Source: Longimicrobium sp. (GTDB lineage: Bacteria > Gemmatimonadota > Gemmatimonadetes > Longimicrobiales > Longimicrobiaceae). From it: 64,000 nucleotides of DNA. The stretch is taken from positions 21,191 through 85,190 of the forward strand of contig DASUYB010000175.1 in NCBI GenBank assembly GCA_036377595.1, in the 5' to 3' direction. Each line of letters starts with the position of its first letter. Position 1 is the stretch's first letter. Below are positions 6,248 to 58,994 of this stretch, piece by piece. The position numbers and the translations under genes were made by a program. The notes under the pieces are model-generated. The model saw nothing but the letters and a program-made list of their open reading frames with translations, ran no database searches and was not told the DNA's origin.

Positions 6248-6979
<732 letters not shown>

Positions 6980-7027
6980 GAAACCTCGTCTGCAGTCGGG
7001 GGAAACACCGGGAGTAGGTGCTCAGAA

Positions 7028-7195
7028 AGTTCTGAGTTCTGAGTCCTAAGTCCTAAGTCCTAAGTCCTAAGTCCTAAGTCCTAAGTCCTAAGTCCTAAGT
7101 CCTAAGTCCTAAGTCCTAAGTCCTGAGTCCTGAGTCCTAAGTCCTAAGTGACAGATAACTAACCACTTAGGACTTAGGACTCAGGACTTAGGACT
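7028..7195. repeat. Heptamer palindromic element, copy 1: a 17-unit tandem array of AGTCCTA-type heptamers, a 13-nt loop, and a 4-unit inverted arm
   Basis: 7028-7146 holds 2x AGTTCTG, 11x AGTCCTA, 2x AGTCCTG and 2x AGTCCTA, followed by AGTG. The loop ACAGATAACTAAC is at 7151-7163. The right arm CAC(TTAGGAC)n is at 7164-7195. The element fills the gap between the permease stop (7202) and the ATPase start (6979). Confidence 0.95.
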
Positions 7196-7201
7196 ATCTG
7201 T

Positions 7202-9658
7202 TCAGATGCCCTCCTTCAGGGCCACGGTCGGCTCGATCCGGAGCGCGTTGAGCGCGGGGGCGCCGCAGGAGACGACGCCCATCAGCAGCATCGACGCGAG
7301 CACCGACAGCATCAGCATGGGGTCGAAGTGCGACCCCGGGATGCGGGTGAAGAGGAAGATCGAGATCAGCGCCCCGATCCCCGCGCCCAGCCCCAGCTGC
7401 ACCACGGCGCGCGAGAACACCGAGGTCAGCACGTTGCGCGGGCTGGCGCCGAGGGCGCGGTAGATGCCGATCTCGCGCTTGCGCTGGGTGACGGTGAACG
7501 ACATCAGCGCGAAGGTCACCGCCGCGGACAGGGCCACGATGAAGAAGCACACGCCCACCATCAGCAGCGCGAAGGCGCGGTCCATCCGCAGCTCGGTGTC
7601 GCTGCGCTGGTCGAGGCGGCGCGTGTCGTAGACCAGGAAGCTCTTGTCCACCTGCCCCGCGATGGCGCGGAAGCGCTCGGCCGCGTCGGTGGCGCCGCCC
7701 TCCAGGCGGATGGCCATGAACCCGGACTGCATCTCCTCCGGCTTCGCCAGCTGGTAGAGCCCCGCGGCCTTGTCGGGCCGCAGCGGGTTCATCCCCAGGT
7801 CGGGCACCACGCCCACGATCTCCAGCCAGGGCCCGGGCTCCTTGCTTCCCGACGCGGCGAAGCGGATCTGCCGGCCCACCGCGTTGCGGCCGCCGAGGAC
7901 CGCCTGCACGAACGGCTGGTTGACCACGATCACCCCCTGCCCCGAGGCCGCGTCGGTGGCGCGGAAGCCGCGGCCGGCCAGGATCGGCGTCTTGAAGGTC
8001 TCGAAGAACTCCGAGCCGACGGAGGCCACGCGCACGCGCTGCACCTCGCCCGCGGCCGCGTTCCCCTCTCCCTTCACCTCCACCAGCTGGGGGAAGTGGG
8101 TCGAGCCGGGGAGCTGCCGCGCGAAGGTGGCGGCGGCGAAGCCGGGCTCGGCCAGCAGGCGCTGCTGCAGCGCCCGGTGCCGCTCCTCCATCTGGGCGGT
8201 GGACTCCGCGGCCTTCGTCTCGCCGCCTTCCACCCCCACGGGACCCTCGGTGCCGTAGCTGACGGTGAGGTATTCCTGCGGACGGATCCCCGGGTAGGCG
8301 GGGTCGGACCAGTTCAGCCCCAGCGTCCACGACAGGGCGATGGGCATCAGCGCGCCCGAGAGCGCCACCTGGGCCACGATGACGCCCGTCGACATCCGCC
8401 GCGAGCGCAGCCCGGCGCCGCCCGCCGCGCTCCGCCGCAGGCTGGCCTCGATGCTCCCGCGGGTGAACTTGAGGCCGGGGATCACGCCCATGAACACGGC
8501 GCCGACCACCGCCAGCGTCACCACGTAGAGGATCGTGGTCAGGTTGAGCCCCGAGTCGCGCCAGAAGGGGGCGGCGGTGCCCAGGGTGCGCCAGAAGAAG
8601 TCCTCGCCGTTGCGCAGCCCCCAGCTCACCACGGTCAGGGCGATGGCCGCGCCGATGGAGGTCAGCAGCAGCGCCTCGACGAACAGCTGGGTGACGATGC
8701 GGCCGCGGCTGGCGCCCAGCGCGGTGCGCACCGAGAACTCCTTCTCGCGCGTGACGATGCGGGCGAAGACCAGCGCGCCCACGTTGGCGCAGATCACCGC
8801 CAGCAGCATCATGAACACGGCGTTCACGCCCATCCGGGCCGAGCTCTCCACCGGGTCGGGGGTGAACTGCTCGAGGTAGGGCTGGATGCGGGGGCGCAGC
8901 CGCTCGTTGCTCTGCGGGAACTCCGAGGCCAGGCGCGCGCCCAGCACCGTCAGCTCGGCCTGCGCCTTCTCCAGCGTGTAGCCGGGCTTCAGCCGGGCGA
9001 TGGTGCCGATGGCCGGGCCCTGGCGGCGCGGGAAGTCGAGCGCGTTCTCGCGGAAGGGGATCCAGACCTCCTGGTTCACCGGGAGCGCGAACGCCTTCGG
9101 CATCACCCCCACCACCGTGTACTGCTGCGACCCCACCTCCAGCGACTTGCCCACGATGGCGGGGTCGCGGCCGAAGCGGCGCTCCCACATCCGCTCGCCG
9201 ATCACTACCACCGGGGCGGCGCCGGGCAGCTCGTCGCCCGCCACCAGCGGCCGCCCGCGGAGCGCGGGGATGCGCGCCAGGCGGAAGGCCGCCGGGCCGA
9301 TCTCCACCACCTCTTCCGGCTCGGCCAGGCCGCCCGCGGGGCCCACGTTGCGCGTGTAGGTGCTGAACGCCGCCAGGTCCTGCACCCCCCTGAGCCCCTC
9401 GCGCCACGCCGTGAAGTCGTGCAGCGAGCGGGGCTCGGGCGCGTTGGTGGCCATGTCCTGGTCGTGGATCTCCACCACCTGCCCGCCGTCGTTCAGCGGG
9501 AGCGTGGGATAGAGGAGGTCGTTCACGATCTCGAAGTAGACCGCGCCGGCCCCGATGGCGAAAGCGGTGGACAGCACCGCGATCAGCGTCAGGAACGGAT
9601 ACCTCGTCAGCATCCGCAGGCTCAGCTTGAGGTCCAGCCACGACGACGAAAGGTTCAT
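7202..9658 (-). CDS. Duplicated FtsX/MacB-type ABC permease (resembles the duplicated orphan permease, ADOP, architecture)
   Basis: Two FtsX-like membrane modules are present: ...REKEFSVRTALGASRGRIVTQLFVEALLL... and ...QRKREIGIYRALGASPRNVLTSVFSRAVVQLGLG.... Each is preceded by a TM helix and a large extracytoplasmic region. I place the start at the ATG at 9658 (MNLSSSWLDLKLSLRMLTRYPFLT...). The track's 9751 start adds an Arg/Pro-rich N-terminus that looks non-coding. Confidence 0.85.
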   Translation of the reverse strand: MNLSSSWLDLKLSLRMLTRYPFLTLIAVLSTAFAIGAGAVYFEIVNDLLYPTLPLNDGGQVVEIHDQDMATNAPEPRSLHDFTAWREGLRGVQDLAAFSTYTRNVGPAGGLAEPEEVVEIGPAAFRLARIPALRGRPLVAGDELPGAAPVVVIGERMWERRFGRDPAIVGKSLEVGSQQYTVVGVMPKAFALPVNQEVWIPFRENALDFPRRQGPAIGTIARLKPGYTLEKAQAELTVLGARLASEFPQSNERLRPRIQPYLEQFTPDPVESSARMGVNAVFMMLLAVICANVGALVFARIVTREKEFSVRTALGASRGRIVTQLFVEALLLTSIGAAIALTVVSWGLRNGEDFFWRTLGTAAPFWRDSGLNLTTILYVVTLAVVGAVFMGVIPGLKFTRGSIEASLRRSAAGGAGLRSRRMSTGVIVAQVALSGALMPIALSWTLGLNWSDPAYPGIRPQEYLTVSYGTEGPVGVEGGETKAAESTAQMEERHRALQQRLLAEPGFAAATFARQLPGSTHFPQLVEVKGEGNAAAGEVQRVRVASVGSEFFETFKTPILAGRGFRATDAASGQGVIVVNQPFVQAVLGGRNAVGRQIRFAASGSKEPGPWLEIVGVVPDLGMNPLRPDKAAGLYQLAKPEEMQSGFMAIRLEGGATDAAERFRAIAGQVDKSFLVYDTRRLDQRSDTELRMDRAFALLMVGVCFFIVALSAAVTFALMSFTVTQRKREIGIYRALGASPRNVLTSVFSRAVVQLGLGAGIGALISIFLFTRIPGSHFDPMLMLSVLASMLLMGVVSCGAPALNALRIEPTVALKEGI

Positions 9659-9766
9659 CTCGACACGCTCACGACTCAGGGGTTCGCGCGCACGTCCGTG
9701 CGGCGGTATCCAGGGCTTCGATGTGATGCCGGAAGGCGAGGTCCGTGCCACGTTGCGATGCGTTAA

Positions 9767-9789
9767 AAATCGTTGTGTCGCAACGATTT
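9767..9789 (-). terminator. AT-rich 9-bp palindrome with a T-run on the transcribed strand; candidate terminator of the NRPS-B/fkbH unit, or an operator for the ABC genes
   Basis: AAATCGTTG-tgtcg-CAACGATTT. The minus strand reads AAATCGTTGcgacaCAACGATTTTTAACG. It lies about 160 nt after the fkbH stop (9949) and about 110 nt before the permease ATG (9658). The stem is short and weak. Confidence 0.3.
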
Positions 9790-9948
9790 ATCCGCCGACG
9801 CACACCATCTCGCGATGCGATTCTGGGAACATCTGTCCCACGAGCGGACACCCGGCGGCGGCGCGGCCGGCAGGGCGAGGTGCCGGCACGGAAAGGAACG
9901 CCGGCGGCGGAGTGCTACCGGAACGGCAGACGGTTGTGCCCAGCCATG

Positions 9949-11760
9949 TCAGGGTTGGGAACAAATGTACACGAAATCGGGCTGTAAAGGCAAGCCCTGA
10001 AACAACTTCCAGTTCCACGAACCGTCCCCCGCGGGCGCGAATCCGAGGTCCGGATACATCCGCGCGGCCACCGCGTTCTTCTCGCTGGGCACGAAGTGCC
10101 CCACCAGCGTGTGCCCGCCGCGCGCGGCCACGAGGCGCGCGAGCTCGGCCAGGAGGCACGCCTCCACCCGGCGGCCGATCACCCGGCAGCTGAGGAGGAA
10201 GGAGTCGACGTCCCACACGCCGTCGCCGCGCGGGGTGGCCAGCGCCACGCCGACCAGGCCGTTGTCGCCGAAGCGGTCGGCCACGCGCATCCACACCCCG
10301 ATCCCCCCGCTGTCGAGCATCGCGGCCACTTCGGAGGCGGTGTGGCGGCGGGTGGTGAGGTTGAACTGGTTGGTCTTCTGGAGGAGCTGGGCCACGCGGG
10401 GGAGCGTGGCGTCGTCGATCTCCCCCATCGTCACCTGCATCTCCAGCGAGCGCAGGAATTCCTCCACGGAGCCGCTGCCGACCTGCGCCTCGCGCCGCTG
10501 CCGCTCGGCGCGGTAGAGGTCGGCGCGGCGGCCGTCCTCCTCGGTCAGCACGGGGTGGTCGAAGAGCTCGGCGGCCTCCAGCGCCTCGACGTAGCCCGTG
10601 GGCGACGCGGGGACGTCGACCACCGCCACCTGCGGGAGCCGCGAGCGCACCCATTCGCGCTCGACGGGGTTGTCGTCGAAGAACGCGAGCGAGTCGACGC
10701 CGATGTTGAGCTCGCGGGCGATGGCCAGCAGCGAGGTGGCCTTGTCTTCCCAGCTGATCTGCAGCGCGGCGAAGTCGGAGGAGCGCAGGACGCAGTCGGG
10801 ATGGCCGTCGAGCACCTCCAGCGCGTCGGCCGGGTTGTTCTTGCTGGCCACGGCCAGGAGCACGCCGCGCGAGCGGAGCCGCTTGACGTGCCGCTGGAAG
10901 CTGCTGAAGACGTTCCCCGGATAGTCGGCGCCGAGCTTGATCCCCCCCGGCCCGTCCTCGCCCAGCACGCCGCCCCACAGGGTGTTGTCGAGGTCGAGCA
11001 CCAGGCACTTGCGCGGCGGCATGCGCAGGCTGCGGAGCCGCCGCGCCAGCGCCCGGCCGATCTCCTGCTGCGCGGCGGCGCTGAAGGGGATGCGCCCCAG
11101 GTGCGCCAGCCGGGCGTCGCTCCAGCGTGCCAGGCCCACCTCGGCCGCCACGCGCGCCAGGTCGAAGACGAAGCAGCCGGGCACCGCCGCGCAGGCGCGC
11201 GCGATCGCGTCGTTGACGGCCGCGATCGCGGAGGCGATGGAGACGGACTGGCCGCCGTCGGCGACGCCCGCCGGGGCGTAGCGCGGCGGCGCGTGGTTGA
11301 AGACCAGCAGCGCCGCGTCGGTCCGGGCGCGGGCGCCCTCCAGCAGCGCGGTGATGCGCCGCTCCACCGCGGCCACCTCGGCGGCGACGTCGTCCGCGTC
11401 CATCGTCAGCAGCTCGTCGAGCAGCGCCGGCGCCAGGTCCTCGGCGCGCGTGGCGACGACGACCACGTCCGGCCGCCGCGCCAGGGTCGGGCTGCCGGCG
11501 TCGAGCAGCTGCTGCTCGAGCTGGCCGTAGGGCCCGAACTCGACGTCGATGCCCAGGCCGCGCCGGGCGCCCTCGACCGTCAGGTAGGGCGCCAGCACGT
11601 CGGCGGTGAAGGAGGCGACGACGGAGACGCGCAGGGGAACGAGCGCCTCGTCGTGCGCGGCGGACTGGACCGCGCGCGCCGCCTCGAGGTACGCCGCGGG
11701 CGACGCACCGCTTTCCGGTAGGAACTCCAGGGCCAAGCTAGGAACCTCTTTCTTTCGCAA
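9949..11760 (-). CDS. fkbH: FkbH-like protein (HAD-superfamily IIIC phosphatase/acyltransferase that loads a glyceryl unit onto a carrier protein)
   Basis: 603 aa. HAD motif I CLVLDLDNTLWGG, motif II LLAVASKNN, motif III FFDDNP, and the FkbH-typical TNQFNLTTRR plus a GNAT-like C-terminal part. The track start at 11760 is a TTG. An alternative TTG at 11736 is preceded by AAGAAAGAGG, so the exact start is uncertain. Confidence 0.85.
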   Translation of the reverse strand: MRKKEVPSLALEFLPESGASPAAYLEAARAVQSAAHDEALVPLRVSVVASFTADVLAPYLTVEGARRGLGIDVEFGPYGQLEQQLLDAGSPTLARRPDVVVVATRAEDLAPALLDELLTMDADDVAAEVAAVERRITALLEGARARTDAALLVFNHAPPRYAPAGVADGGQSVSIASAIAAVNDAIARACAAVPGCFVFDLARVAAEVGLARWSDARLAHLGRIPFSAAAQQEIGRALARRLRSLRMPPRKCLVLDLDNTLWGGVLGEDGPGGIKLGADYPGNVFSSFQRHVKRLRSRGVLLAVASKNNPADALEVLDGHPDCVLRSSDFAALQISWEDKATSLLAIARELNIGVDSLAFFDDNPVEREWVRSRLPQVAVVDVPASPTGYVEALEAAELFDHPVLTEEDGRRADLYRAERQRREAQVGSGSVEEFLRSLEMQVTMGEIDDATLPRVAQLLQKTNQFNLTTRRHTASEVAAMLDSGGIGVWMRVADRFGDNGLVGVALATPRGDGVWDVDSFLLSCRVIGRRVEACLLAELARLVAARGGHTLVGHFVPSEKNAVAARMYPDLGFAPAGDGSWNWKLFQGLPLQPDFVYICSQP

Positions 11761-11782
11761 GATCGGTAAGATGATGACGGAG

Positions 11783-11851
11783 AGTCCTAAGTCCTGAGTC
11801 CTAAGTCCTAAGTGGTTCGTTTTCTGTCACTTAGGACTTAGGACTTGGGAC

Positions 11852-11859
<8 letters not shown>
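11783..11859. repeat. Heptamer palindromic element, copy 2: 32-nt arms of four heptamers each and a 13-nt loop
   Basis: Left arm AGTCCTAAGTCCTGAGTCCTAAGTCCTAAGTG at 11783-11814. Loop GTTCGTTTTCTGT at 11815-11827. Right arm CACTTAGGACTTAGGACTTGGGACTTAGGACT at 11828-11859. The NRPS-B stop codon TAA (complement of 11852-11854) lies inside the right arm. Confidence 0.95.
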
Positions 11860-38188
<26,329 letters not shown>

Positions 38189-38741: not shown

Positions 38742-38815
38742 CTCACACGGAGGGAACGGAGGAAACGGAGGGTTTGCTCATCATCCCTCCGTTTCCTCCG
38801 TTCCCTCCGTGTGAG
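38742..38815 (-). terminator. Perfect 31-bp-arm palindrome (12-nt loop) 63 nt downstream of the ACP gene; candidate terminator or RNA-stability hairpin
   Basis: CTCACACGGAGGGAACGGAGGAAACGGAGGG at 38742-38772. Loop tttgctcatcat at 38773-38784. CCCTCCGTTTCCTCCGTTCCCTCCGTGTGAG at 38785-38815, with no mismatches. The arms contain three AACGGAGG-like direct repeats. No clean U-tract follows. Confidence 0.4.
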
Positions 38816-42213: not shown

Positions 42214-45200
42214 TCAGGCGGAGGGGAAGGAGAACGATTCGCCGGCCGCCTCGGCCAGGCGCGCGAGCTCCTCGGGGTCGAACTGGGCCAGCTGCGCGTC
42301 CACCACCCGCTCGGCCAGCGTGGCCAGCACCGGCGCCTCGAAGATCTCCCTCATCCCCAGGTCCACCCCCACCTCGTCGCGGATGCGCGTGGCCACCCGC
42401 ACCACCAGCAGGGAGTGGCCGCCCAGCTCGAAGAAGTCGTCGTTCCGGCCGACGCGGGCCACCCCCAGCACCTCGGCCCAGATCTCCGCCAGCAGCTCCT
42501 CCGTCTCCCCCTCGGGCGCCTCCCAGGCGCGCCGGGCATAGGCGTCCGCGTCGGGCGCGGGCAGGGCGCGGCGGTCCACCTTGCCGCTGGTGGTGAGCGG
42601 GAGCCGCTCCAGCCGCACGTACGCCGCGGGCACCATGTACTCCGGCAGCTGCTCGCCCAGGTGGGTGCGCAGCACCTCGGCCCCGACCTCCGGGCCCACG
42701 TAGTAGGCGACGAGGCGCTGCAGCCCCGGCTCGTCCTCGCGCGCGGCGACGACGGCCTCGCGCACCGCCGGGTGGGCGGCCAGCTTGGCCTCGATCTCGC
42801 CCAGCTCCACGCGGAAGCCGCGGATCTTCACCTGGAAGTCGGCGCGGCCCTGGAACTCGAGCGTGCCGTCGGCGCGCCAGCGGCCGAGGTCGCCCGTGCG
42901 GTAGAGCCGCGCGCCGCCGCCCGCGAACGGGTCGGGGACGAAGCGCTCGGCCGTCAGCGCCGGCCGGTCCAGGTAGCCGCGCGCCACCTGCACCCCGCCG
43001 ATCAGGATCTCGCCCGTGACGCCCACCGGCGCCGGCGCACCCCTCTCGTCGAGCACGTAGATGCGGCAGTTCGGCGTCGGACGACCCAGGCTGGCGCCGA
43101 CCGCCTCGCCCTCGACGGGGCGCCGCCGGGTGACGGCGACGGTCGCCTCGGTCGGCCCGTACATGTGGTCCAGCGTGACGCCCGGCAGCCGCGAGCGCAG
43201 CCGCCCCATCAGCCCCGCCGGCAGCGGCTCGCCGCCGCTGAGGACCTGCCTCAGGCTGGTGCAGCCGGCGACGTCCGGATGCTCGAGGAACTCCAGCAGC
43301 ATCGACGGCGGGAAGGTGGCCGTGGTGACGCCGGCGCGGCGGATCAGCTCCACCAGGTGGGCCGGGTCGCGGTGCCCCTCGGGGCGCACGACGACGAGCC
43401 GCGCGCCCACGGTCAGCGGCCAGAAGAACTCGCGCACGGAGACGTCGAAGCTCGACGACATCCGCTGCAGCATGGCGTCGCCGCCGCCGAGCGCCCACGT
43501 CTCCTGCGCCCAGGCCAGGGCGTTGGCCACGTTGGCGTGCGTGTTCATCACCCCCTTGGGCTTGCCCGTGGAGCCGGAGGTGTAGATCACGTACGCCAGG
43601 TTCGCCGGGCTCCCCATCCGCGCCGGGTTCGTCTCCGGCCCGGCGGGGAGATCTCCATCGACCGCGACGACCGGCATCTCCAGACCCTCGAAGATCGAAG
43701 CCAGACCGTCGCGCTGCCGCGTCTTCGTCAGCACCGCCGCCGGCGCGCTGTCGGCCAGCATGTAGCGCAGGCGATCCGACGGATAGTCGGGGTCCAGCGG
43801 CACGTACGCGCCGCCGGCCTTGAGCACGCCGAAGAGCGCCACCGGCATCTCCGCGCTGCGCTCCATGCACACGGCCACCCGCGCGTCGGGCCCCACGCCC
43901 AGCGCGCGGAGGTGGTGCGCAACCCGGTTCGCCCGCCGGTTCAGCTCGGCGTAGGTGAGCGACTCGTCCTCGAAGACGACGGCGACGGCGTCGGGCGTGC
44001 GCTCAACCTGCCGCTCGAATAGCTCGTGGATGCACAGGCCGCCCTCGTACGCCGAGTCGGTGCGGTTCCACTCCTCCACCACCCGCGCCCGCTCGCCCTC
44101 GTCGGCCAGCGCCAGCGCGGCCACGGGCTGCGCGTCGTCCGCCACCATCTGCTCCAGCACCCGGCGCAGGTAGCCGACGTAGCGCCGCACCGTCTCCTCG
44201 TCGAACAGCGCGGTGGCGTAGAGCAGGACGCCGCGCATCCGCCCCTCCACCTCGGAGAGGGTGAGGGCCAGGTCGTACCGCGCGGTCGCCGCCGCCTCGC
44301 CGCCCACGGGCGACGCGTCCAGCTCCGGCAGCTCCAGCGGGCCGCCGGGGTTGTTCTGGACGGTGAACATCACCTGGAAGAGCGGGTTGTGCGCCAGGCT
44401 GCGCACCGGGTCCACCAGCTCCACCACCCGCTCGAAGGGGATGTCGCCGTTCTGCTGCGCCCCCAGCGTGGTGGCCTTCACCTGCTTGAGGAGATCGGCC
44501 ACGGTGGGCGAACCGCCCACCCCCACGCGCAGCGCCAGCGTGTTCACGAAGAAGCCGATCAGCCCCTCGATCTCGCGCTGCCCGCGGTTGGCCGTGGGTG
44601 TGCCGACTACGACGTCTTCCTGCCCGGCGAGCCGGCTCAGCACCGTGGCCCACCCGGCGAGCAGCGTCATGTACATCGTCGTCCCATGCCGCCGGGAGAG
44701 CGCCTTCAGCCCCGCGGTCAGCGTCTCGTCCAGCTCGATCCCGCGCAGCACCGCGCCGGCGAAGTCCGGCCGCTCGGGGCGCGGGCGGTCGGTCGGCAGG
44801 GTGAGGACGGCGGGGACGCCCTGCAGCGTCTCGGTCCACCACCGGGCCTGCGCCTCGAGCGTGGCGTCGTCGAGGGCGCGCCGCTGCCAGACGGCGTAGT
44901 CGGCGTACTGGATGGGAAGCGGCGGAAGGGGATCGGGCCTGCCCGCGCGGTAGGCGGCGTACAGCTCGCCCAGCTCGCGGTGGAACACCCCCGACGACCA
45001 GCCGTCGAAGACGATGTGGTGCAGGGTGACCAGCAGCACGTGCTCGTCGGCCGCCAGGCGGACCAGGCGGGCGCGGAAGAGCGGACCGTGCTCCAGGTCC
45101 AGCGGCGCGGTGGACTCCGCCGCCATCGCCAGCTGCAGCGCCCCGTCCACGTCCTCCACGCCCTGCAGGTCGTCGAGCTCCAGCGCGAAGGCGTGCTCCT

Positions 45201-48200
45201 CGACCGAGGCGATGCGCTGGCGGGGAACGCCGTCCACCTGCACGAAGCGGGTGCGCAGCGCCTCGTGCCGCGCCACGATCCGGGCCAGCGCCCGCTCCAG
45301 CGCGACCTCGTCCAGCTCGCCGCGGAGACGGGTCGCGTGGAAGATGCGGTACGCCCAGGCGTCGGCGCCCAGCGAATCCAGGAACCACATCCGCTGCTGC
45401 GCGTAGCTCAGCGGCGGATGCACACCGTGCACGCGCGGGGTGATCGCCGGCAGCGCGCTGCGGCGCGAGGACTCGGCGCCGCGCGCGAAGTCGGCCAGCA
45501 CAGGGCGCTCGAACAGGTCCAGCAGCGACACCTCGGTGCCCAGCGCCTCACGGACGCGGGAGATGACCTGCACCGCCAGCAGCGAGTGGCCGCCCAGCTC
45601 GAAGAAGCCGTCGTTGCGCCCCACGCGCTCCACGCCCAGCAGCTCCGCCCAGATGGCGGCCACCGCGGCCTCGGCCTCGCTCACCGGCGCCTCGTAGGCG
45701 CGGCGGGCGTAGGCGTCCTCGGCCGGCGCGGGAAGCGCGCGGCGGTCCAGCTTGCCGGTGGGGGTCAGTGGCAGGCTCTCCAGCCGCACGTAGGCGGCGG
45801 GCACCATGTGCTCGGGGAGCCGCTCGCCCAGGTGCGCCCGCAGCGCCTCGGCCCCGGCGTCGGCGCCCAGGTAGTACGCCACCAGGCGCTGGTCGCCCGG
45901 CGCATCCTCGCGCGCCGCCACCACGGCCTCGCGCACGGAGGGGTGCTCGGCCAGGCGCGCCTCGATCTCGCCCAGCTCCACCCGGAAGCCGCGCACCTTC
46001 ACCTGGAAGTCGTTGCGGCCCAGGAACTCCAGCATCCCGTCGGGCCGCCAGCGCGCCAGGTCGCCCGTGCGGTACAGGCGCGCGCCGGGCTCGCGCCCGA
46101 ACGGATCGGGGACGAAGCGCTCGGCCGTCAGCGCGGCCCGGCCCAGGTATCCACGCGCCACGCTGGCGCCGCCGATGTACAGCTCGCCGGCCACGCCGAC
46201 GGGCACGGGCTGGCCGGAGCGGTCGAGGAGATACGTGCGGCTGTTGGCCATCGGGCGGCCGATCGGCACCCGCGCGTCCGTCATCCCCCCACAGTCCAGC
46301 GCGGCGACGGCCGTGGCGGCCTCGGACGGGCCGTAGAGGTTGTGGATGGTGGCGCCGGAGAGCCGCTCGCGCGACCGCGCCAGCAGCGAGCCGGGGAGCA
46401 CGTCGCCGCCGCACAGCACGCGGCGCACCCTGGCCAGGCTCGCCACCTCGGGACGGTCGACCAGCAGCTGCAGGAGCGCGGGGACGGCATTCAGCGCGGT
46501 GACGCCCTCGCGCCGCATCAGCCGCACGAGCGCCTCGGGGTCGGGGCGCGCGCCCTCGGCCAGCACGATCCGCGCGCCCACCGTCAGCGGCCACACCAGC
46601 TCGCGGATCGAGCCGTCGAAGCTGAGCGTGGTGTGGCTCAGCATCGTCTCGTCCTGACCCAGCCGCCACGCGGCCTGCGCCCACGACACGCGCTGCACCA
46701 CGTTGCCGTGCGTGTTCATCACCCCCTTGGGGCGCCCGGTGGAGCCCGAGGTGTAGATCACGTACGCCAGATTCTCCGGCCCCACTCCCGCCCGCGCCGG
46801 GTTCGACTCCGGCCCGTCCGCCGCCTCGCCAATGGAGAGGACGGGGACGTCCAGCCCGGCAACGAGATCCGCCATCGTCCCGCGCTGGGCGGCGTCGGCC
46901 AGCACGCACGCCGGCGCGCTGTCCTCGAGCATGTAGCGCAGCCGGTCCTCGGGATACGCCGGGTCCAGCGGCACGTACGCCCCGCCGGCCTTCAGCACGC
47001 CGAGCATCGCCACCACCATCTCGGGGCTGCGCTCCAGGCAGACGGCCACGCGGACGTCCGGGCCCACGCCCCGCGCCGCGAGGTGGTGCGCCACCCGGTT
47101 CGCCCGGCGGTTCAGCTCGGCGTACGTCACCTCGTCGTCGTGGAACACCAGCGCCACCGCGTCGGGCGTGCGCTCCGCCTGGCGCTCGACCAGCTCGTGG
47201 ATGGTCGCCTCGCGCGGATACTCCATCTCCGTGGCGTTCCACTCGTCCACCACGAACGAGCGCTCGGCGCCGGAAAGGAGCGCCAGCTCGTCCACGCGCA
47301 GGGTGTCGTCGGCGGCCATCTGCTGCAGCGCGCGGCGCAGGTAGCCCGCGTAGCGCCGCACCGTGCCCTCGTCGAACAGCGCGGTGGCGTACTCCAGCTC
47401 GCCCTCGATGCGGCCGCTCTCCTCCTCGAGCGAGAGGGAGAGGTCGAACTTGGCCATCACCGCCGACGTGCCGGGGAGCTGCTGCATCTCCAGCCCCGGG
47501 AACTCCAGCGCGCCGCCGGGATTGTTCTGCAGTGAGAGCATCACCTGGAAGAGCGGGGCGTGCGCCACGCTGCGCGCGGGATCGACCACCTCCACCACGC
47601 GCTCGAAGGGGATGTCCTGGTTGGCCTGCGCGCCCAGCGAGCGCGCCTTCACCCGCCCCAGCAGCTCCGCCACCGTCGGCGAGCCCGAGACGTCCACGCG
47701 CAGGGCGAGGGTGTTGACGAAGAAGCCGATCAGCCCCTCGATCTCGCGCCGCCCACGGTTGGCCGAGGGCGAGCCGACGACGACGTCCGCCTGGCCGGAG
47801 AGACGGCTGAGGACGGCCGCCCACCCGGCCAGCAGCGTCATGTACAGCGTCGTCCCGTGGCGCCGGGAGAGCGCCTTCAGCGCCGCGGTCAGCGTCTCGT
47901 CCAGCTCCACGCGGACGGACGCGCCGGTGTGGTCCATCCGCGCCGGGCGAGGACGGTCCGCCGGCAGCTCCAGCAGCGCCGGCGCGCCGGCCAGCGCCTG
48001 GCGCCAGTACGACGCCTGCGCCTCGATCACCTCGCCCTCGATCCAGCGGCGCTGCCAGACGGCGTAGTCCGCGTACTGGATCGGCAGCGGCGGAAGGGGA
48101 TTCTCCCCGCCCGCGCGGAAGGCGGCGTAGAGCGCGCCAAGCTCGCGGCTGAACACCCCCGACGACCATCCGTCGGAGACGATGTGGTGCATGGTGATGA

Positions 48201-51200
48201 GGAGGACGTGGTCGTCCGCCGCCATGCGGATGAGCCGGCCGCGGATCAGCGGCCCGTGCTCCAGGTCGAACGGCGCCTCGGCCTCGTCCTCCATCAGTCC
48301 CGCCAGCGTCTCCTCCGCCGCGGGATCAGCCGTCAGGTCGTGCTCGATGAGAGCGAAACGCGTCTCGGATGCGATGCGCTGCACCGGCGCGCCGTCCACC
48401 TGCGCGAACGACGTGCGCAGCACCTCGTGCCGCGCGACCAGCGCATCGAGCGCGCGCACCAGCGCGTCGCGGTCCAGCTCGCCACGCAGGCGGCGGCGGC
48501 GCGGCACGTGGTAGGTGCTCCCCAGGTTGCCCAGCTGCTCCAGGAACCAGAGCCGCTGCTGCGCGAAGGAGAGGGGCAGATCGGATTCCCGCTCGGCGAC
48601 CTCGATCGCGGGAAGCTCGGCGTGCGCCGCGGCGTCGACCGCGCGCGCGAAGTCGGAAAGGACGGGGCGCTCGAAGACGTCGCGCAGCGCCACCTCGGCA
48701 CCCAGCGCCTCGCGCACGCGACTGGTCACCTGCACCGCGAGCAGCGAGTGGCCGCCCAGGTCGAAGAAGCTGTCGTGCCGCCCCACGCGCTCGGTGCCCA
48801 GCACCTCGCACCAGATCCCCGCCAGCACCTCCTCGGTCGTCCCCACCGGCGGCTCGTAGGCGCGGCGCGCGTAGGCGTCCTCGGCCGGCGCGGGAAGCGC
48901 GCGGCGGTCCACCTTGCCGCTGGAGCCGAGCGGGATGTGGTCCAGCCACACGTAGGCGGCGGGGACCATGTGCTCCGGCAGCCGCGCGGCCAGGTGCGCC
49001 CGCAGCGCGGCGACGTCGACGTCCTCGGCGCCGACGCAGTAGGCGACCAGGCGCTGGTCGCCCGGGCCATCCCTGCGGGCGATGACGACGGCCTCGCACA
49101 CCGACGGGTGCTCGAGGAGGCGCGACTGGATCTCGCCCAGCTCCACGCGGAAGCCGCGGATCTTCACCTGGAAGTCGGCGCGCCCCAGGAAGTCGAGCGC
49201 GCCGTCGGCGCGCCAGCGGCCCAGGTCGCCCGTGCGGTACAGGCGCGCGCCCGGCTCGCGGCCGAACGGATCGGGGACGAAGCGCTCGGCGGTCAGCTCG
49301 GGCCGGTTCAGGTAGCCGCGCGCCACCTGCACGCCGCCGATGTAGACCTCGCCCGGCACGCCGGCGGGGACGGGGTCGCCGCGCCGGTCGAGCACGTAGA
49401 CGCGGTTGTTGTCCAGCGGCCGGCCGATGGGGACGATCGCCCCGGAGTTCCCCGCCTCGTAGAGGATCGAGGTGGAGACGATCGACGCCTCGGTGGCGCC
49501 GTACATGTTGCGCAGGCTCACGCCCAGGCGGCCGCGGAACTCCTCGGCCAGCTCGGCGGGAAGCGCGTCGCCGGCGCAGTTCACGTTGCGCAGCGAGGCC
49601 AGCTCGCCGAAGCGGGGATGCCGCAGGAGGGCGCGCAGCAGCTCGGGCACCACCCCCAGCGAGGTGATCCCGTGGCGCGCCACCAGGTCGATCAGCTCCG
49701 ACGGGTCCATCGCCTCGCGCTCGCGCGGCAGCACCAGGCGGGCGCCGGCCAGCAGCGGAACGAAGAAGGCGGGAACCGACGCGTCGAAGGCCACCGGCCA
49801 GCGCTGCAGGATCCGGTCGTCGGGCGACGTCACCCAGACCTTCCGCATCCAGCCGAAGAAGTTCACCACGCCCCGGTGCGGGACGAGCACGCCCTTCGGA
49901 TGCCCCGTCGAGCCGGAGGTATAGATGACGTACGCCAGGTGGTCGGGGGTCAGCCCCGCCGGCTGCGGATCCCAGTCCGGTCCGTTCGCCTCCGCGCCGC
50001 CGCCGAGGGCGACGACGGGAATCTCCATCTCCGCGAAGAGCGACTCGGCCGCCACCCGCTGCCCGGCGTGCGTCACCACCGCCGCGGGCGCGCTGTCGGC
50101 CAGCATGAAGCGCAGCCGGTCCTCGGGATACGCCGGGTCCAGCGGCACGTACGCACCGCCGGCCTTCAGCACGCCGAGCAGCGCCACCACTGTCTCCAGG
50201 CTGCGCTCCATGCAGATGGCCACGCGGCCGTCCGGCCCCACGCCGCGCGCGGCGAGATCGTGCGCCAGGCGGTTCGCCCGGCGATTCAGCTCGCCGTAGG
50301 TGATCGTCTCGCCCTCGAACTCCACGGCGACGACGTCCGGCGTGCGCTCCGCCTGCCGCTCGAAGAGCTGATGGATGCACGCGTCGGACGCGTACTCGGC
50401 TTCCGTGGCGTTCCACTCCTCCACCACCTCCCGCCGCTCGGCGTCGGAGAGGAGCGTCAGCTCGTCCACGCGCAGGCGGTCGTCGGCTACCATCTGCCGC
50501 AGCACGCGGCGCAGGTAGCCCAGGTAGCGCACCACCGTGGCCTCGTCGAACAGCGCGGTGGCGTACTGCAGCTCGCCCGCGATGCGGCTGGCGCCCTCCT
50601 CCAGCGACAGCGCCAGGTCGAACTTGGCGGTGGCGCCGGAGACGGACGGCAGCGGCGCCGGCTCCAGCCCCGGCAGCTCCGTCGTGCCCAGGTCGTTGGT
50701 CTGCCAGACGAACATCACCTGGAAGAGCGGCGTGTGCGCCAGGCTGCGCACCGGGTCGACCAGCTCCACCACGCGCTCGAAGGGGATGTCCTGGTTCTGC
50801 TGCGCCTCGAGCGTGGCCGCCTTCACCTGCCGCAGCAGCTCGGCCACGGTGGGCGTGTCGGAGAGGTCGACGCGCAGCGCCAGCGTGTTGACGAAGAAGC
50901 CGATCAGCCCCTCCACCTCGCGCCGCCCGCGGTCGGCCGACGGCGAGCCGACGACGACGTCGCCCTGGCCCGAGAGACGGCCGAGCGTGGCCGCCCACCC
51001 GGCCAGCAGCGTCATGAACAGCGTGGTGCCGTGGCGCAGCGACAGCGCCTTCAGCCCCGCCGTCAGCTCCTCGTCCAGCTCCACCCACACCGAGGCGCCC
51101 GCGTGGTCCATCCGCGCGGGACGCGGCCGATCCGTGGGGAGCTCGAGGAGCGCCGGCGCGCCGGCCAGCTTCCGCTGCCAGTACGCCGCCTGGGTCTCCA

Positions 51201-54200
51201 GCACCTCGCCCTCGATCCAGCGCCGCTGCCACGCGGCGTAGTCGGCGTACTGGATGGGGAGGGGGGAGAGGGGATTCGGCTCGCCCGCGCGGAAGGCGGC
51301 GTAGAGCGCGCCCAGCTCGCGGCCGAAGACGTCCGACGACCAGCCGTCGAAGATGATGTGGTGCACGGTGACCAGCAGGACGTGGTCGTCCGGCGCCATG
51401 CGGATCAGCCGGCCGCGCACCAGCGGGCCCTGCTCCAGGTCGAAGCGCGCCGTGGCCTCCTCCGCCAGCACCCGTACCAGCGCGTCCTCGGCGCCGGCGT
51501 CGCGGGTCAGGTCGATCTCCACCAGCGGGAAGCGGCTCTCCGCCGCCGGCGCGATGCGCTGCACCGGCGCGCCGTCCACCCGCGGGAAGGTGGTCCGCAG
51601 CGTCTCGTGCCGGGCGACCAGTGCGTCCAGCGCGCGCACCAGCGCGTCGCGGTCCAGCGCGCCGCGCAGACGGCGGCGCCAGCGCATCTGGTACGCGCTC
51701 CCCAGCCCGCCGAACTGCTCCAGGAACCAGAGCCGCTGCTGCCCGAACGACAGCGGCAGGTCGGCCCCGCGCTCGACCGCCTCGATGCGGGCGAGCTCGG
51801 TGTGGACCGCGTCTCCGAGCGCGCGGGTGAAGTCGGCCAGCACGGGGCGCTCGAAGAGGGCGCGCAGAGGAATCTCCGCCTGCAGCGCCTCGCGCACGCG
51901 GGTGATGGCCTGCACCGCCAGCAGCGAGTGCCCGCCCAGCTCGAAGAAGTGGTCGTTGCGGCCGACGCGGTCGACGCCGAGCACCTCGGCCCAGATCTCC
52001 GCCAGCGCCTCCTCCGTCTCCCCCATCGGGGCGACGAACTCGCGCGTGGACCAGGCGTCGCTCTCCGGCGCGGGCAGCGCCTTGCGGTCCGCCTTCCCGC
52101 TGGGGGTCATCGGCAGCGCCTCCAGCCGCACGAAGGCGGCGGGGACCATGTACTCCGGCAGGCGCGCGGCCAGGTGCTCGCGCAGCGCGGCGGCATCCAC
52201 CTCGCCCTCGCCCGCCCAGTACGCCACGAGACGCTTCTCGCCCGGCGCGTCCTCGCGCGCGACGACCACGGTCTCGCGCACGTCGGGGTGGTCGGCCAGC
52301 TTCGCCTCGATCTCGCCCAGCTCGATGCGGAAGCCGCGGATCTTCACCTGGAAGTCGGTGCGGCCCAGGAACTCCAGCGTCCCGTCTGCCCGCCAGCGCG
52401 CCAGGTCGCCCGTGCGGTACAGCCGCGCGCCGGGCTCGCCCGAGAACGGGTCGGCGACGAACTTCTCCGCCGTCAGCTCGGGGCGGTTCAGGTAGCCACG
52501 CGCCACCTGGCCGCCGCCCACGTGGATCTCGCCCGCCACGCCCACGGGCGCGGGGCGGCCCTGCTCGTCGAGCACGTACACGCGCGCATGCAGCACCGGC
52601 CGGCCGATCGAGCGCCAGCTCTGCGGGTCGCGCGTGACCTCCTGGAGCGTCGCGTTGACCGTGGCCTCGGTGGGGCCGTAGAGGTTGCGCAGCTCGGGGA
52701 GATAGCCGCCGCGGCGGAACCAGGCCGCCAGCATCGCGGGCTCCACGGCCTCGCCGCCGGTCTCCACCAGGCGCACGCAGGGGGGGATGGCCACGCCCTC
52801 CTCGCCCACCAGCAGCTGCCAGAAGCGCACGGGGAGGTCGGTCACCGTCACCCCGTGGCGCTCGCAGCGGGCCCAGAAGGTCTCGGCGCTCTCCAGCCAG
52901 GCGTCGCTGCGCAGCACCGACGCGGCGCCGGACAGGATCGCCCCGAAGATCTGCTCCACCGACGCGTCGAAGGTCACCGGCGCGAACTGCAGCACGCGGT
53001 CGCCGGGGCCGATCCCCAGTCCCGCCTGCAGCCCCTCCACCTGCATGCACAGCGAGCGGTGCTCGACCATCACCCCCTTGGGCGTGCCGGTGGAGCCCGA
53101 GGTGTAGATCACGTACGCCACGTGCCGCGGCGTCAGCCCCGCGCGGGCGGGATTGACGTCAGGCTCGCCGGCAAACGCCTCCGGCGCGGAGAGGTCGACC
53201 AGCGGCACGCCGAAGCCGGCCAGCGCGTCCGCGAGGTGCGACTGCGTCAGCACCAGCGCGGGGGCGGCGTCCTGCAGCACGGCGGCGATGCGCTCGGCGG
53301 GATGGCTGGGGTCCAGCGGCACGTACGCGCCGCCGGCCTTCAGCACGCCCAGCAGCGCCACCATCATCTCCGCCCCGCGCTCCACGCACAGGGCGACGCG
53401 GACGTCCGGCCCCACGCCGCGCGCGGCCAGGTGGTGCGCCAGGCGGTTGGCGCGCCGGTTCAGCTCGCCGTACGTCAGCTCCACCTCGCCGGCGACGACG
53501 GCGATCGCCTCGGGGGCGCGCGCGGCGTGCTCCTCGAACAGGTCGGGGGCGCAGCGCTCGCGCGCGGGCGCCATCTCCCTGCGGTTCCACGCGTCGACGA
53601 CGAGCCGACGCTCGCTCTCCGGCAGCACGTCGACCGCGGCGACGGCCGTCTCCGGCGCCGTCTCCAGCGCGTCGACCAGCCGCTCCAGCGCGGCGTGCAT
53701 CAGCTCGGAGATCCGCGCCGGATCGATCGAGACGTCGACCTGCGGCGTCAGCGTGAAGCCCTCGCCCCAGTCGTCCACCGACAGCGTGAGCGGATAGTTG
53801 GTCCGCTCCTCGCCGCGCAGCATGCGGATCCCGTCCCACGCCTGCCGGCTCTCCGCCTCGTCCACGCGGATGCCGCCCGAGCCGCCGTCGCCGTAGCCGT
53901 GGCGGTAGTTGAGCAGGGTGGTGAAGAGCGGGGTGGGCGCCTGCACGCCGCTGCAGCGCTGCGCCAGCGCCAGCGACGCGTGCTCGTGCCGCAGCAGCCG
54001 CGCGAGGGTGCGATGCGTGTCGCGGACGGCGTCCTCCACGCCCTGCCCGTCGACGCGCACGCGGACGGGAAGGGTGTTGATGAACACACCGAGCACGCGG
54101 TCGGCGCCCTCGCCGCCTTGCATGCGGCCGAAGAGGAGGGTGCCGAACACCACGTCCGGCTGCCCCGACGCGCGCGACAGCACCTGCGCCCAGGCGACGT

Positions 54201-57200
54201 GGAAGAGGCTGGCCGCGCTCACCCCCAGCGCGCGCGCCCGGGCGCGCAGCCGGAGCGCGAGGTCGGAGTCCAGGTGACGCTCGGCCTCGTGCGTCTCCGA
54301 CCCGTCGCTCAGCACGTCCATCAGGCCGAACGGCGCGGTGGGCTCGGCCACGTCGGCCAGCATCTCGCGGAAGAAGCGCTCGTGCTCGGCCGGCGTCAGC
54401 CCGGCGCGCGCCTGCGCCACGAAGTTGCGGAACGGCAGCGGCGCGGGAAGCTCGCCCGCGCGCCCCAGCAGGTGCGCCTGCACCTCGGCCTGCAGCACCT
54501 CGAGCGTGGTGTGGTCGCTGACCAGGTGGTGCATGCGCAGCAACAGCAGCCACCCGCCCTCGCCGTCCTGGGCGATGTAGGCGTGCAGCATGGGCGCGCG
54601 GCGCACGTCGATCCGGCTCTGCCGCAGGCTGCTCGCCCACAGCCGGCCGGCCGCGTCGCCCTCCGCCCCGTCGAGCTGAATCTCGTCGACGGGGAGATCG
54701 GCCGAGCGCCAGACGACCTGCACCGGCTCGCGCAGCCCCTCCCACACCACGCCGGTGCGGAAGATGTCGTGGCGGGCGATGATGGCCCGCAGCGCGCCCA
54801 GGTACGCGTCGAGCCGCTCGCGGCCGGCGAAGCCGAGGAGGCTCACCAGCAGGTAGGGATCGTCGTCGCCGTGGCTCAGCAGGTGGTGGAAGAGGATGCC
54901 TTCCTGCAGCGGGGCCAGCGGGTAGATGTCCTGCACGTTGGCGGCGCCGCCCTCCACGCCCGCGACGATGCGGTCGATCTCCCCCTGGCTCAGCTCCACC
55001 AGCGGCAGCATCTCCGGGCGGATGCGATCGCACCCGGCGGGGATGGCGTTGGCGGGGACGACCACCTCGGCGGATTCGCCGCTGACCAGCGCGGCCAGCT
55101 CGGCCAGCGTGGGCGCGGTGAACAGCGCGGGGATGTCGGCGTGCAGCCCGTGCGGCCGCATCCGCGCGATCAGCGTCACCACCAGCAGCGAGTGGCCGCC
55201 CAGCTCGAAGAAGTTGTCGTGCCGGCCCACGCGCTCCACGCCCAGCACCTCGGCCCAGATCTCCGCCAGCGTCTCCTCGGTCTCACCCACCGGCGGCTCG
55301 TAGGCGCGCCGCGCGTACGCGTCCGCGCCGGGGGCGGGAAGCGCGCGGCGGTCGACCTTGCCGTTCTGCGTGAGCGGAAGCGCCTCCAGCCGCACGTAGG
55401 CGGCGGGGACCATGTGCTCCGGCAGCCCGGCCAGGTGCGCGCGCAACTCGTCGATCCCGATCTCCGGGCCCGCGTAGTACGCCACCAGGCGCTTATCGCC
55501 CGGCGAGTCCTCGCGCGCCACGACGACGGCCTCGCGCACGTCGGGATGGTCGGCGAGGCGCGCCTCGATCTCGCCCAGCTCGATGCGGAAGCCGCGGATC
55601 TTCACCTGGAAGTCGTTGCGGCCCAGGTACTCCAGCATCCCGTCCGCCCGCCAGCGCGCCAGGTCGCCGGTGCGGTACAGCCGCGCGCCCACCTTGCCGG
55701 AGAACGCGTCGGGGACGAAGCGCTCCGCCGTCAGCTCGGGACGGTTCAGGTAGCCGCGCGCCAGCTGCACGCCGCCGATGTGGATCTCGCCCGTGACGCC
55801 CACCGGCACCGGCTCACCCGAGGCGTCCAGCACGTAGATGCGCGAGTTGGCGATCGGACGACCGATCGGCACCGATGCCGCACGATCGCGCTCCGCGTCG
55901 AAGCGGTGGATCATGCAGCCGACGGTCGCCTCGGTCGGCCCGTACTCGTTGTAGATCTCCGCACCGCCCAGCGCGCGCTGCGCGGCTTCGGCCACGGCCG
56001 TCTTCAGGTCCTCGCCGCCGAGGATCAGCGCGCCCAGGCGGCGCGTCTCCTCATCCCCCTGCTGCAGCAGCGCGAGGTGCGCCGGCGTCAGCTTAGCGAC
56101 GTCGACCCGGTCCTCCCCGATCACCCGCAGGACGGGGAGATCGGAAGCCTCTCCCTCGCGGTACACCACGATCGTCCCGCCCGTGATGAGGGGGACGTAG
56201 ATCGAGGTGACGGTGAGGTCGAACGCGATCGACGAGTAGAGCGGGAAGGTGCTCGCCTGGCCGCCAGCGTAGGTGTTCGCCGCCCAGGTGGCGTAGTGCG
56301 TGAGACCGCGATGGGGGACGACGACGCCCTTGGGACGGCCGGTGGAGCCAGAGGTGTAGATGACGTACGCCGCGTGCTCGGGAGTGACCGCGCGCGCCGG
56401 GTTCGTCTCCGCCTGATCGGCCCACGCCTCCGCATCGGCATCGACGCGAACCAGCGGCAGGGTGGCGTCCGCGAAGCGCTCCGGCAGCGAGCCGTGCGTC
56501 AGCAGCAGCGCGGGCGCGCTGTCGGCGAGCATGTACTGCAGGCGCTCGTCGGGGTAGCCGGGATCCATCGGCACGTACGCGCCTCCGGCCTTGATGACGG
56601 CGAGCAGCGCCACCACCATCTCCAGGCTGCGCTCCATGCATACGGCCACCGGCACGTCCGGCCCGACGCCCATCCCCGCGAGGTGGTGCGCGAGGCGGTT
56701 CGCGCGGGCGTTCAGCTCCGCGTAGGTCAGCGACTCGCCCTCGAACTCCGCGGCGACGGCGTGCGGCGTGCGCTCCACCTGCCGCTCGAACAGCTCGTGC
56801 ACGCAGCGGTGGCCCGGGAACGGCGAGTCCGTCGCGTTCCACTCCTCCACCACCTGCCGCCGCTCGCCGTCCGAGAGCAGCGCCAGCTCGTCCACGCGCA
56901 GCGTGTCGTCCGCCACCATCTGCTCGAGGACGCGGCGGAAGTAGCCCACGTGCCGCAGCACCGTCGCCTCGTCGAACAGCGCGGTGGCGTACTCCAGCCG
57001 GCCGGAGATGCGGTCGTTCCCCTCTTCGAGCGAGAGGTCCAGGTCGAACTTCGCCGTCGTCCCCGAAACCGCGGGGAGCGCCGCGGCCTCAACGCCGGGA
57101 AGCTCCAGCGGCGCGCCGTCGTTGTTGTGCCAGGTGAACATCACCTGGAAGAGCGGCGTGTGCGCCAGGTTGCGCACGGGATCGGCGATCTCGACGACCC

Positions 57201-58910: not shown

Positions 58911-58994
58911 AGTCCTAAGTCCTGGGTCCTAAGTCCTAAGTGCTTCGTCCTTGGTCACTTAGGACTTAGGACTTGGGACTTAGGACTTTGGACT
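58911..58994. repeat. Heptamer palindromic element, copy 3: 32-nt arms, a 13-nt loop, and one extra degenerate unit
   Basis: Left arm AGTCCTAAGTCCTGGGTCCTAAGTCCTAAGTG at 58911-58942. Loop CTTCGTCCTTGGT at 58943-58955. Right arm CACTTAGGACTTAGGACTTGGGACTTAGGACT at 58956-58987. TTGGACT at 58988-58994. It lies between the PKS stop (59044) and the NRPS-A ATG (58830). Confidence 0.95.

Follow-up and report, generated by a model that had tools for sequence, protein, structure and literature searches.

REP, BIME and REPIN elements of Enterobacteria and Pseudomonas, which are mobilised by RAYT, are dispersed extragenic palindromes that lie downstream of stop codons in either orientation, often as hairpin doublets. 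Their arms are imperfect palindromes of about 20-40 nucleotides (nt) with a conserved GTAG-type head, and the elements vary between relatives and can stabilise upstream mRNA, as in E. coli. Here we analyse three palindromes built from tandem heptamers of the type AGTCCTA, which are located in a 64-kb stretch of DNA from Longimicrobium sp. (contig DASUYB010000175.1; the whole stretch of 64,000 nt is hereafter called the window) carrying a cluster of non-ribosomal peptide synthetase (NRPS) and polyketide synthase (PKS) genes. Our analysis favours, with slightly better than even confidence, the reading that the three loci are paralogous, REP-like dispersed palindromes with four-unit heptamer microsatellite arms, shaped by slippage and fold-back copying, and that effects at the RNA level are probably by-products. 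The family is probably restricted to one lineage, the Longimicrobiaceae.

Tandem heptamers of similar layout have been described in Xanthomonas and Geobacter. Xanthomonas genomes each contain about 185 arrays of simple sequence repeats (SSRs) with the unit GGGAATC and a mode of four units, and 70-75 convergent pairs per genome are capable of forming stem-loops (Rehm et al. 2015, PMC4692102). These arrays are 89-93% intergenic, mostly between co-oriented open reading frames (ORFs), with mean distances of 28 nt to the ORF upstream and 160 nt to the one downstream; their length and sequence differ between sister species, and no function was found (PMC4692102). The window elements have in common with them the 7-nt unit, the four-unit arms, the inverted pairs behind stop codons and the variation between sister species. 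In vitro, the G-rich unit of Xanthomonas folds into G-quadruplexes (PMC4692102), which the window unit cannot do because it has no G3 tract. The AGTCCTA family thus repeats the Xanthomonas and Geobacter layout with a unit of another kind, and since the same four-unit, inverted, behind-stop arrangement is found without G-quadruplex capacity, the four-unit rule needs another explanation.

In Geobacter metallireducens, the class 3 predicted global regulator binding sites (Gmet_I301-I308) are intergenic, for example at proB/proA (Aklujkar et al. 2009, PMC2700814). The paired opposite-strand sites of Geobacter consist of four octamers in class 1, three TCTCCGTS[Y] units in class 2 and five MTYCTGA heptamers in class 3, and the authors guessed that they are binding sites of IHF/HU (PMC2700814). 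Class 3 resembles the window elements in its tandem heptamers, its opposite-strand pairs and its location between genes, and the window variants GTCCTGA and GTTCTGA agree with MTYCTGA at 6 of the 7 positions. The dominant unit of the window, GTCCTAA, is nevertheless unlike MTYCTGA, its arms abut a 13-nt loop with a fixed AAGTG/CACTT centre whereas the paired sites of Geobacter start about 70-115 nt apart, and the host belongs to another phylum and has a GC content of 73%.

Intergenic tandem heptamers are scattered across further phyla, as the STRR of Calothrix and Nostoc, GGGGA(C/T)T of Nostoc and TAACTGA of Beggiatoaceae (PMC4679880). Nostoc GGGGACT differs at two positions from TAGGACT, a rotation of the window unit. 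These arrays are mostly direct (inverted pairs are few in Nostoc, and Beggiatoa has a single one), and many of them lie upstream of start codons, whereas the window elements lie behind stops. An excess of heptamer repeats in bacterial genomes has been known since 2007, and, as far as the citing papers relate, its origin and function are unexplained.

Palindromes built from AGTCCTA

The three elements follow one plan, in which about four AGTCCTA units ending in AGTG, a 13-nt loop, and CAC with about four TTAGGAC units form a palindrome; they occupy positions 7028-7195 (copy 1), 11783-11859 (copy 2) and 58911-58994 (copy 3). An earlier note, made from the letters of this DNA, had given these positions and this architecture, and both were confirmed, except that copy 1 has 17+4 units and not 4+4, and that the arms carry unit variants (CCTG, CCCA and GGTCC). 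The paired arms are 32 nt long, 91-97% complementary and 13 nt apart, and Tandem Repeats Finder (TRF) detected a period of 7 with 4.4-5.4 copies per arm and 17.6 copies in one arm. When a two-unit probe was matched with at most one mismatch, 28 matches were obtained against 0.01 expected, and none of 100 shuffles reached 28, which bears out that this is a true repeat family. The exact heptamer AGTCCTA does not occur outside the three elements in the 64-kb window. The unit has a GC content of 43%, and the window as a whole 73%.

In copy 2, the left arm (11783..11814) reads AGTCCTA AGTCCTG AGTCCTA AGTCCTA AGTG, the loop (11815..11827) GTTCGTTTTCTGT, and the right arm (11828..11859) CAC TTAGGAC TTAGGAC TTGGGAC TTAGGAC T, with 94% complementarity. 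Copy 3 has the left arm AGTCCTA AGTCCTG GGTCCTA AGTCCTA AGTG (58911..58942), the loop CTTCGTCCTTGGT (58943..58955) and the right arm CAC TTAGGAC TTAGGAC TTGGGAC TTAGGAC (58956..58987), followed by a degenerate fifth unit, TTTGGAC T, up to 58994; its arms are 91% complementary. Copy 1 has one grossly expanded arm of 17 units at 7028..7149 (TRF: period 7, 17.6 copies, score 204), which are in order 2 AGTTCTG, 11 AGTCCTA, 2 AGTCCTG and 2 AGTCCTA, then AGTG. Its loop (7151..7163) is ACAGATAACTAAC, and its short arm (7164..7195; 32 nt, 97% complementary) has four units, CAC-(TTAGGAC TTAGGAC TCAGGAC TTAGGAC)T. The ATCTGT that comes after this short arm (7196-7201) is complementary to ACAGAT of the loop, and the stop codon of the permease gene (7202-7204) directly follows.

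We compared the copies with each other in the orientation set by their loops. When the loop of copy 2 is read as its reverse complement, it agrees with that of copy 1 at 11 of 13 positions, against 1 of 13 in the forward sense, and for this reason copy 1 is inverted relative to copies 2 and 3, as the earlier note had proposed; the loops of copies 2 and 3 agree at 8 of 13 positions in the same orientation. When oriented in this way, the 5' arms have a common pattern, AGTCCTA AGTCCTG AGTCCTA AGTCCTA AGTG. All three copies carry a G in the second 5'-arm unit, have AAGTG/CACTT as their centre and enclose a loop of 13 nt; copies 2 and 3 also have TTGGGAC as the third unit of the 3' arm, and in copy 1 the G of the second unit is matched by a compensating C in the opposite arm. 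Because independent slippage would not reproduce such details of variant, centre and loop, the three copies are, judged by these shared features, paralogues that would have spread as whole hairpins and not arisen locally, with one copy now flipped relative to the genes.

RNA folding of either strand gave -51 to -61 kcal/mol with z scores of -8.6 to -10.1, in agreement with the predicted very stable stems, and DNA folding of copy 2 gave -31 to -33 kcal/mol. The mismatches within the stems are all single transitions, giving G.T on one strand and A.C on the other. A strand bias of these wobble pairs, which are all G.T when read on the + strand and A.C when read on the mRNA strand, was considered and dropped because any single transition yields that pattern on one strand or the other; the mismatches represent about four independent events (two-sided p of about 0.12), and the wobble of a related element in another Longimicrobium genome (L004, described below) is on the sense strand.

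As had been noted, all three elements are located in short intergenic gaps between co-directional genes, with all flanking genes on the minus strand: copy 1 between the permease and ATPase genes, copy 2 between NRPS-B and the FkbH-like gene, and copy 3 between the PKS gene and NRPS-A. They are nearer to the upstream stop codon (0, 6 and 49 nt) than to the downstream start codon (about 47, 48 and 80 nt). Stop codons are indeed present in each of the three frames of the arms, and the NRPS-B ORF, 11852..38188(-), ends in AAG TCC TAA within copy 2, so that the right arm supplies its last two sense codons and its TAA stop, the latter (11852-11854) within the outermost unit. Directly adjoining copy 3, there is a GC-rich 10-bp hairpin, GGGCGGACGC-CGCG-GCGTCCGCCC (58882-58910), with CTTTT after it on the + strand, which looks like a terminator for antisense (+ strand) transcription.

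Several other identities were tried and rejected. A miniature inverted-repeat transposable element (MITE) was rejected since the flanks of the three copies (GGAG/TCAG, TTTT/CGTC and AGAA/ATCT) show no direct repeat and thus no target-site duplication. A scan for intrinsic terminators called none of the three elements, and no U-tract or T-run follows any copy on the minus (mRNA) strand, which also tells against the attenuator or terminator that had been listed among the possible roles. G-quadruplexes were rejected because the units contain only GG or CC and the single TTGGGAC variant per arm is insufficient for four G3 runs. Rfam gave 0 matches at the gathering threshold, and at E<=1 only generic microRNA-precursor hairpins with 30-43 bits against cut-offs of 60-100 bits. 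The doubled AGTCCTA heptamer had no match in the literature searched.

Turnover of the elements between sister species

A homologue of the FkbH-like protein with 94% identity led to a sister contig (L132), and a near-identical contig (L134) originates from a farmland-soil metagenome. The window and L132 are 92-96% identical in nucleotide sequence across the genes and other spacers (about 4-8% divergence), and their collinearity is broken at three spots. Two of these are the sites of the heptamer elements, and the third, an indel of ~113 nt in the spacer between fkbH and the permease gene, is free of elements.

At the NRPS-to-fkbH junction, the 414-nt spacer of L132 has no heptamer element. The NRPS ends in EEIGRIG* in L132 and in EEIGRIGEELKS* in the window, and the sister protein is five residues shorter. 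This spacer of L132 (4395-4640) is filled by a different inverted repeat, GTCATCCTGAGGG ... CCCTCAGGATGAC, with an extra copy of GTCATCCTGAG upstream, which looks like another small dispersed or MITE-like repeat.

At the permease-to-ATPase junction, a heptamer palindrome is found in both species, although that of L132 and L134 consists of 5+4 units with 33 nt between them. The arm length is therefore unstable, as copy 1 has one arm of 4 units and one of 17, and the sister species has 5+4. A flank of the sequence GAGTMGGTGCT(CA)GAAAGTTCTG (21/22 identical) lies on the permease side of the element in L132, beside the stop codon, and on the ATPase side in the window, beside the start codon. This suggests either that the cassette was flipped or re-inserted, or that each lineage lost a different side of a larger ancestral palindrome by decay. 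Because either history leads there, the elements are, on this comparison, to be regarded as dispensable and as hot spots of structural change. The sister genome thus documents loss or gain of a copy and mirroring at about 4-8% sequence divergence. The suggestion that the palindromes have a dedicated regulatory role in the cluster is weakened accordingly, as one element is absent from the sister and the other is mirrored and rebuilt.

The junction of copy 3 gave no orthologue in the sister. A search with the 500 C-terminal amino acids (aa) of the PKS (59047-60546) returned no match at E<=1e-50 in spite of the Pfam KR, ACP and thioesterase domains, which is probably an artefact of the candidate preselection by shared words, and a search with the N-terminus of NRPS-A returned no close orthologue.

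Related arrays in other genomes and metagenomes

When the centre pattern AGTCCTAAGTG-N10-16-CACTTAGGACT was scanned in GTDB-representative genomes, 11 stretches were obtained, of which 10 were rejected as unrelated simple hairpins (low-GC terminators and a REP-like family of Acidimicrobiales). The remaining one, L004, from a Longimicrobium metagenome-assembled genome (MAG) with 71% GC, has the centre AGTCCTAAGTG-N12-CACTTAGGACT with a loop of 12 nt, and its heptamer arms show three compensated variants. It lies 9 nt past the stop codon of an unrelated small gene, and the gene downstream can be read, judged by sequence alone, as an MscS-type channel. Because L004 is at an unrelated locus, the family is not specific to biosynthetic clusters. 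The dispersal found so far amounts to the 3 copies in 64 kb and this locus, and among ~1 Mb of fetched sequence the AAGTG/CACTT centre together with heptamer arms was found only in the window and L004. The Acidimicrobiales family is represented by five intergenic copies of GTTTTTGTGAGTCCTAAGTGCTG-N6-CAGCACTTAGGACTCACAAAAAC in MAG CAZHMP01 (L002, L003, L006, L009 and L011), in which the AGTCCTAAGTG core is a coincidental likeness.

Looser arrays are widespread. A scan for three consecutive AGTCCYR units yielded at least 120 stretches in metagenomes and 26 in viral contigs, with array types (GAGTCCC)n, (GAGTCCT)n, (AAGTCCC)n and (AAGTCCT)n on contigs of 34-74% GC, often adjoining other heptamer arrays such as AGTGCTG or CGGGATT. 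Among the matches listed, related AGTSCYR arrays occur widely in viral contigs and soil metagenomes and have, like the window, a mode of four units, an inverted partner array is present within 150 nt at 31 of 120 metagenome loci, and the array lies within 100 nt of a contig end at 26 of 120. The latter is of practical concern, because the hairpins break assemblies; they can also supply or shift the stop codons of very large synthetase genes, and are likely obstacles to cloning or heterologous expression of such clusters. The mode of four units holds, among the matches listed (L012-L160), for units without GGG (26/59 arrays) as well as for units with GGG (41/97), and thus the G-quadruplex explanation is weakened for the whole class.

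The inverted pairs often combine AGTCCTG and AGTGCTG units, with one C.C or G.G mismatch per unit. One locus, L019, combines Geobacter-type and window-type units, since CTCCTGA, ATTCTGA and GTCCTGA are mixed within a single inverted pair. In two others (L123 and L128), AGTCCTA-type arms surround 37- and 94-nt spacers, and short blocks of these loci are common to other copies, TGAACTGCAC to L132 and ATCTGTTC and YTTCGTC to the window, which hints at longer MITE-like relatives. Two low-GC stretches (L098 and L121), in which the plant-type telomere repeat CCCTAAA grades into AAGTCCT/TTAGGAC, were rejected as eukaryotic look-alikes unrelated to the bacterial family. A plasmid BLAST search with copy 2 gave no match, and no heptamer arrays were found in three 20-kb contig stretches with related NRPS genes (L161-L163; 63%, 74% and 74% GC).

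The companion nonamer is a further likeness to Geobacter. The gap from the stop codon of the aminotransferase gene (39143) to the start of the co-directional NRPS-B (38188) contains a palindrome at 38742..38815 of three tandem nonamers (ACGGAGGGA or ACGGAGGAA; ACGGAGGRA) around a 12-nt loop, with a perfect 31-bp complement (100%) and a folding energy of -68 kcal/mol (z -13). It resembles the class 2 paired sites of Geobacter with their three TCTCCGTS[Y] units, and the combination of a heptamer class with this companion class is therefore found in both Geobacter and the window. No CTCCGT nonamer palindromes were found on the other fetched contigs (~0.72 Mb).

In the light of these comparisons, the AGTCCTA family appears to be new, and its architecture is that of the known paired tandem-heptamer repeat class of Geobacter and Xanthomonas; the earlier note, which did not recognise the family, was right about the exact repeat, which is absent from Rfam and the literature searched, and not about the layout. 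Of the roles that it had offered, a REP- or MITE-like element is the closest fit. Like MITEs, the window elements are short and non-coding, have terminal inverted repeats and are polymorphic for presence and absence, and the 37-94 nt of internal sequence in L123 and L128 is MITE-like. Unlike in MITEs, the terminal repeats are unstable microsatellites, and the target-site duplication is missing. We know of no parent insertion sequence with ends matching the heptamer palindromes. The arms also have neither the internal dyad symmetry nor the GTAG head of REP elements and consist of tandem direct units instead. By analogy, the elements most plausibly work like REP elements.

Proposed origin and predicted effects of the palindromes

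The paralogous, REP-like reading, on which the elements would behave as selfish or near-neutral palindromes of the REP type, implies the following sequence of events. A master hairpin would be copied to new intergenic gaps, either by a trans-acting hairpin-specific transposase or by recombination between heptamer arrays. The unit number would then be altered by replication slippage, and the arms would be kept complementary by template switching within the hairpin (fold-back copying). Copies would persist only where they are harmless, that is, past a stop codon and away from the ribosome-binding site of the next gene. Once in a polycistronic mRNA, the stem of ~32 bp would be expected to act as a barrier to 3' exonucleases or as a substrate of RNase III, and to stop ribosomes that read through. 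Such RNA-level effects are probably by-products and not the reason for the existence of the element.

Several points weigh against this account. None of the 13 window ORFs scanned matched a transposase family in Pfam, the window showed no other candidate mobiliser, and neither a target-site duplication nor a common insertion target was seen at the three copies. If a larger ancestral palindrome decayed unevenly, this would also account for the mirrored flank at the permease-to-ATPase junction, as turnover without re-insertion, and the persistence of a palindrome at that junction despite complete remodelling could mean selection for the hairpin and not mere tolerance. The statements about RNA are all predictions, and the genome-wide copy number and dispersal are extrapolated from 64 kb.

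An alternative at the DNA level, to which we assign a low probability, is that the elements are protein-binding arrays, in which the 3-5 units per arm bind a nucleoid-associated or global regulator as a symmetric oligomer and the hairpin is incidental. The Geobacter sites of classes 1-3 have been interpreted in this way, as sites of the IHF/HU type (PMC2700814), and the co-occurrence of the heptamer and the CTCCGT nonamer in Geobacter and the window is in line with it. Furthermore, a fixed modal unit number of 4 across unrelated units, seen among the matches listed, resembles a footprint size, and the C.C or G.G mismatch of AGTCCTG/AGTGCTG pairs is poor for a hairpin and acceptable for a degenerate site. 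However, none of the members of the class has a known binding protein, the Geobacter interpretation being a proposal, and the 7-bp spacing sets successive sites on different faces of the helix. The compensated arm variants, of which copy 1 has one pair and L004 three, would be needless for independent sites, and the sister species has no element at the orthologous NRPS-to-fkbH junction.

We consider it similarly improbable that the palindromes are selected cis-regulatory RNA elements for processing or stability, attenuation or insulation, which set the relative expression of the genes in the biosynthetic operon. In favour of this, a very stable hairpin is present in four co-directional gaps of one cluster, stop codons are supplied in all frames on both strands, the stop codon of NRPS-B comes from the element, and a heptamer palindrome is kept at the permease-to-ATPase junction in both species; REP hairpins of E. 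coli also stabilise the mRNA upstream of them. Against it, the NRPS-to-fkbH copy is absent from a sister cluster whose genes are otherwise 92-96% identical, the orientation, loop and unit number are not conserved, and neither a U-tract nor another signal resembling a terminator is present. L004, an unrelated locus of housekeeping type, carries the same family, and the three stretches with related NRPS genes have no arrays. Translational insulation, which had been suggested for the elements, does not generalise, because the sister units GAGTCCC and GGGAATC carry no stop codon in any frame.

That each hairpin arose on the spot, by slippage of a microsatellite followed by a fold-back template switch and with no copying between sites, is disfavoured and the least probable of the three alternatives, since the G in the second 5'-arm unit, the AAGTG/CACTT centre and the 13-nt loop length are the same in all copies, two loops are homologous at 11/13 positions and L004 in another genome has the same centre, although heptamer SSRs are over-represented in bacteria, which papers citing Mrazek (2007) report as credited to slippage, copy 1 shows a gross one-sided expansion, and about three quarters of the metagenome arrays among the matches listed have no inverted partner.

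The occurrence of the same two unit types in two distant phyla is a lead that could point to an undiscovered trans-acting system. As a long shot, the paired, opposite-strand arrays of 3-5 heptamers (NTYCTRA) or nonamers (YCTCCGTNN) in Geobacter (Desulfobacterota) and in the Longimicrobiaceae genome of the window (Gemmatimonadota), together with the related AGTSCYR arrays of metagenomes and viral contigs, might all be cis sites of one widespread system of this kind. Its trans-acting part could be a transposase or recombinase specific for hairpins or single strands, or else a protein that binds nucleic acids in a 7-nt register. If true, this would be a new partnership like that of REP and RAYT, which both spreads the sites and sets their size, and it would explain the heptamer excess of bacteria.

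Remainder of the operon

The large genes of the window are on the minus strand throughout and constitute the NRPS/PKS cluster. In the order of transcription, the PKS gene has its stop at 59044 and ends with KR, ACP and TE domains according to Pfam, and is followed by NRPS-A (42214..58830, start 58830; 5538 aa), for the N-terminus of which the best named homologues belong to Longimicrobiaceae. Genes for a phosphopantetheinyl transferase (PPTase), a methyltransferase and the aminotransferase mentioned above lie between the two NRPS genes, and NRPS-B encodes 8778 aa. The genes for the FkbH-like protein (9949..11760), a MacB-type permease (7202..9751) and an ABC ATPase (6248..6979) follow. The PKS ORF (59044..63954) begins partway through an acyltransferase domain, as its residues 5-101 correspond to Pfam positions 199-300 of 319, and the gene must therefore be interrupted or frameshifted close to the right end of the window (63954-64000).

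In both copy 2 and the nonamer palindrome, one arm is Shine-Dalgarno-like (UAGGA and GGAGG, respectively) and the other anti-Shine-Dalgarno-like (UCCUA and CCUCC), which may be a coincidence. The same may apply to a 13-codon ORF (AUGAUGAGC...UGA) that is held by the nonamer hairpin and starts in its loop. A second, imperfect hairpin with a sub-threshold match to Actino-pnp is located at 38620-38685, 60 nt from the nonamer palindrome. When 5000-13000, 38000-39300 and 58600-59300 were scanned for promoters, the only sigma-70-like match was TTGATT-17-TATATT with an upstream TG, at 38541-38569 on the minus strand. This match lies past the nonamer palindrome in the direction of NRPS-B, whose start follows after ~350 nt, and the long spacer of lower GC content before this gene may therefore hold an internal promoter.

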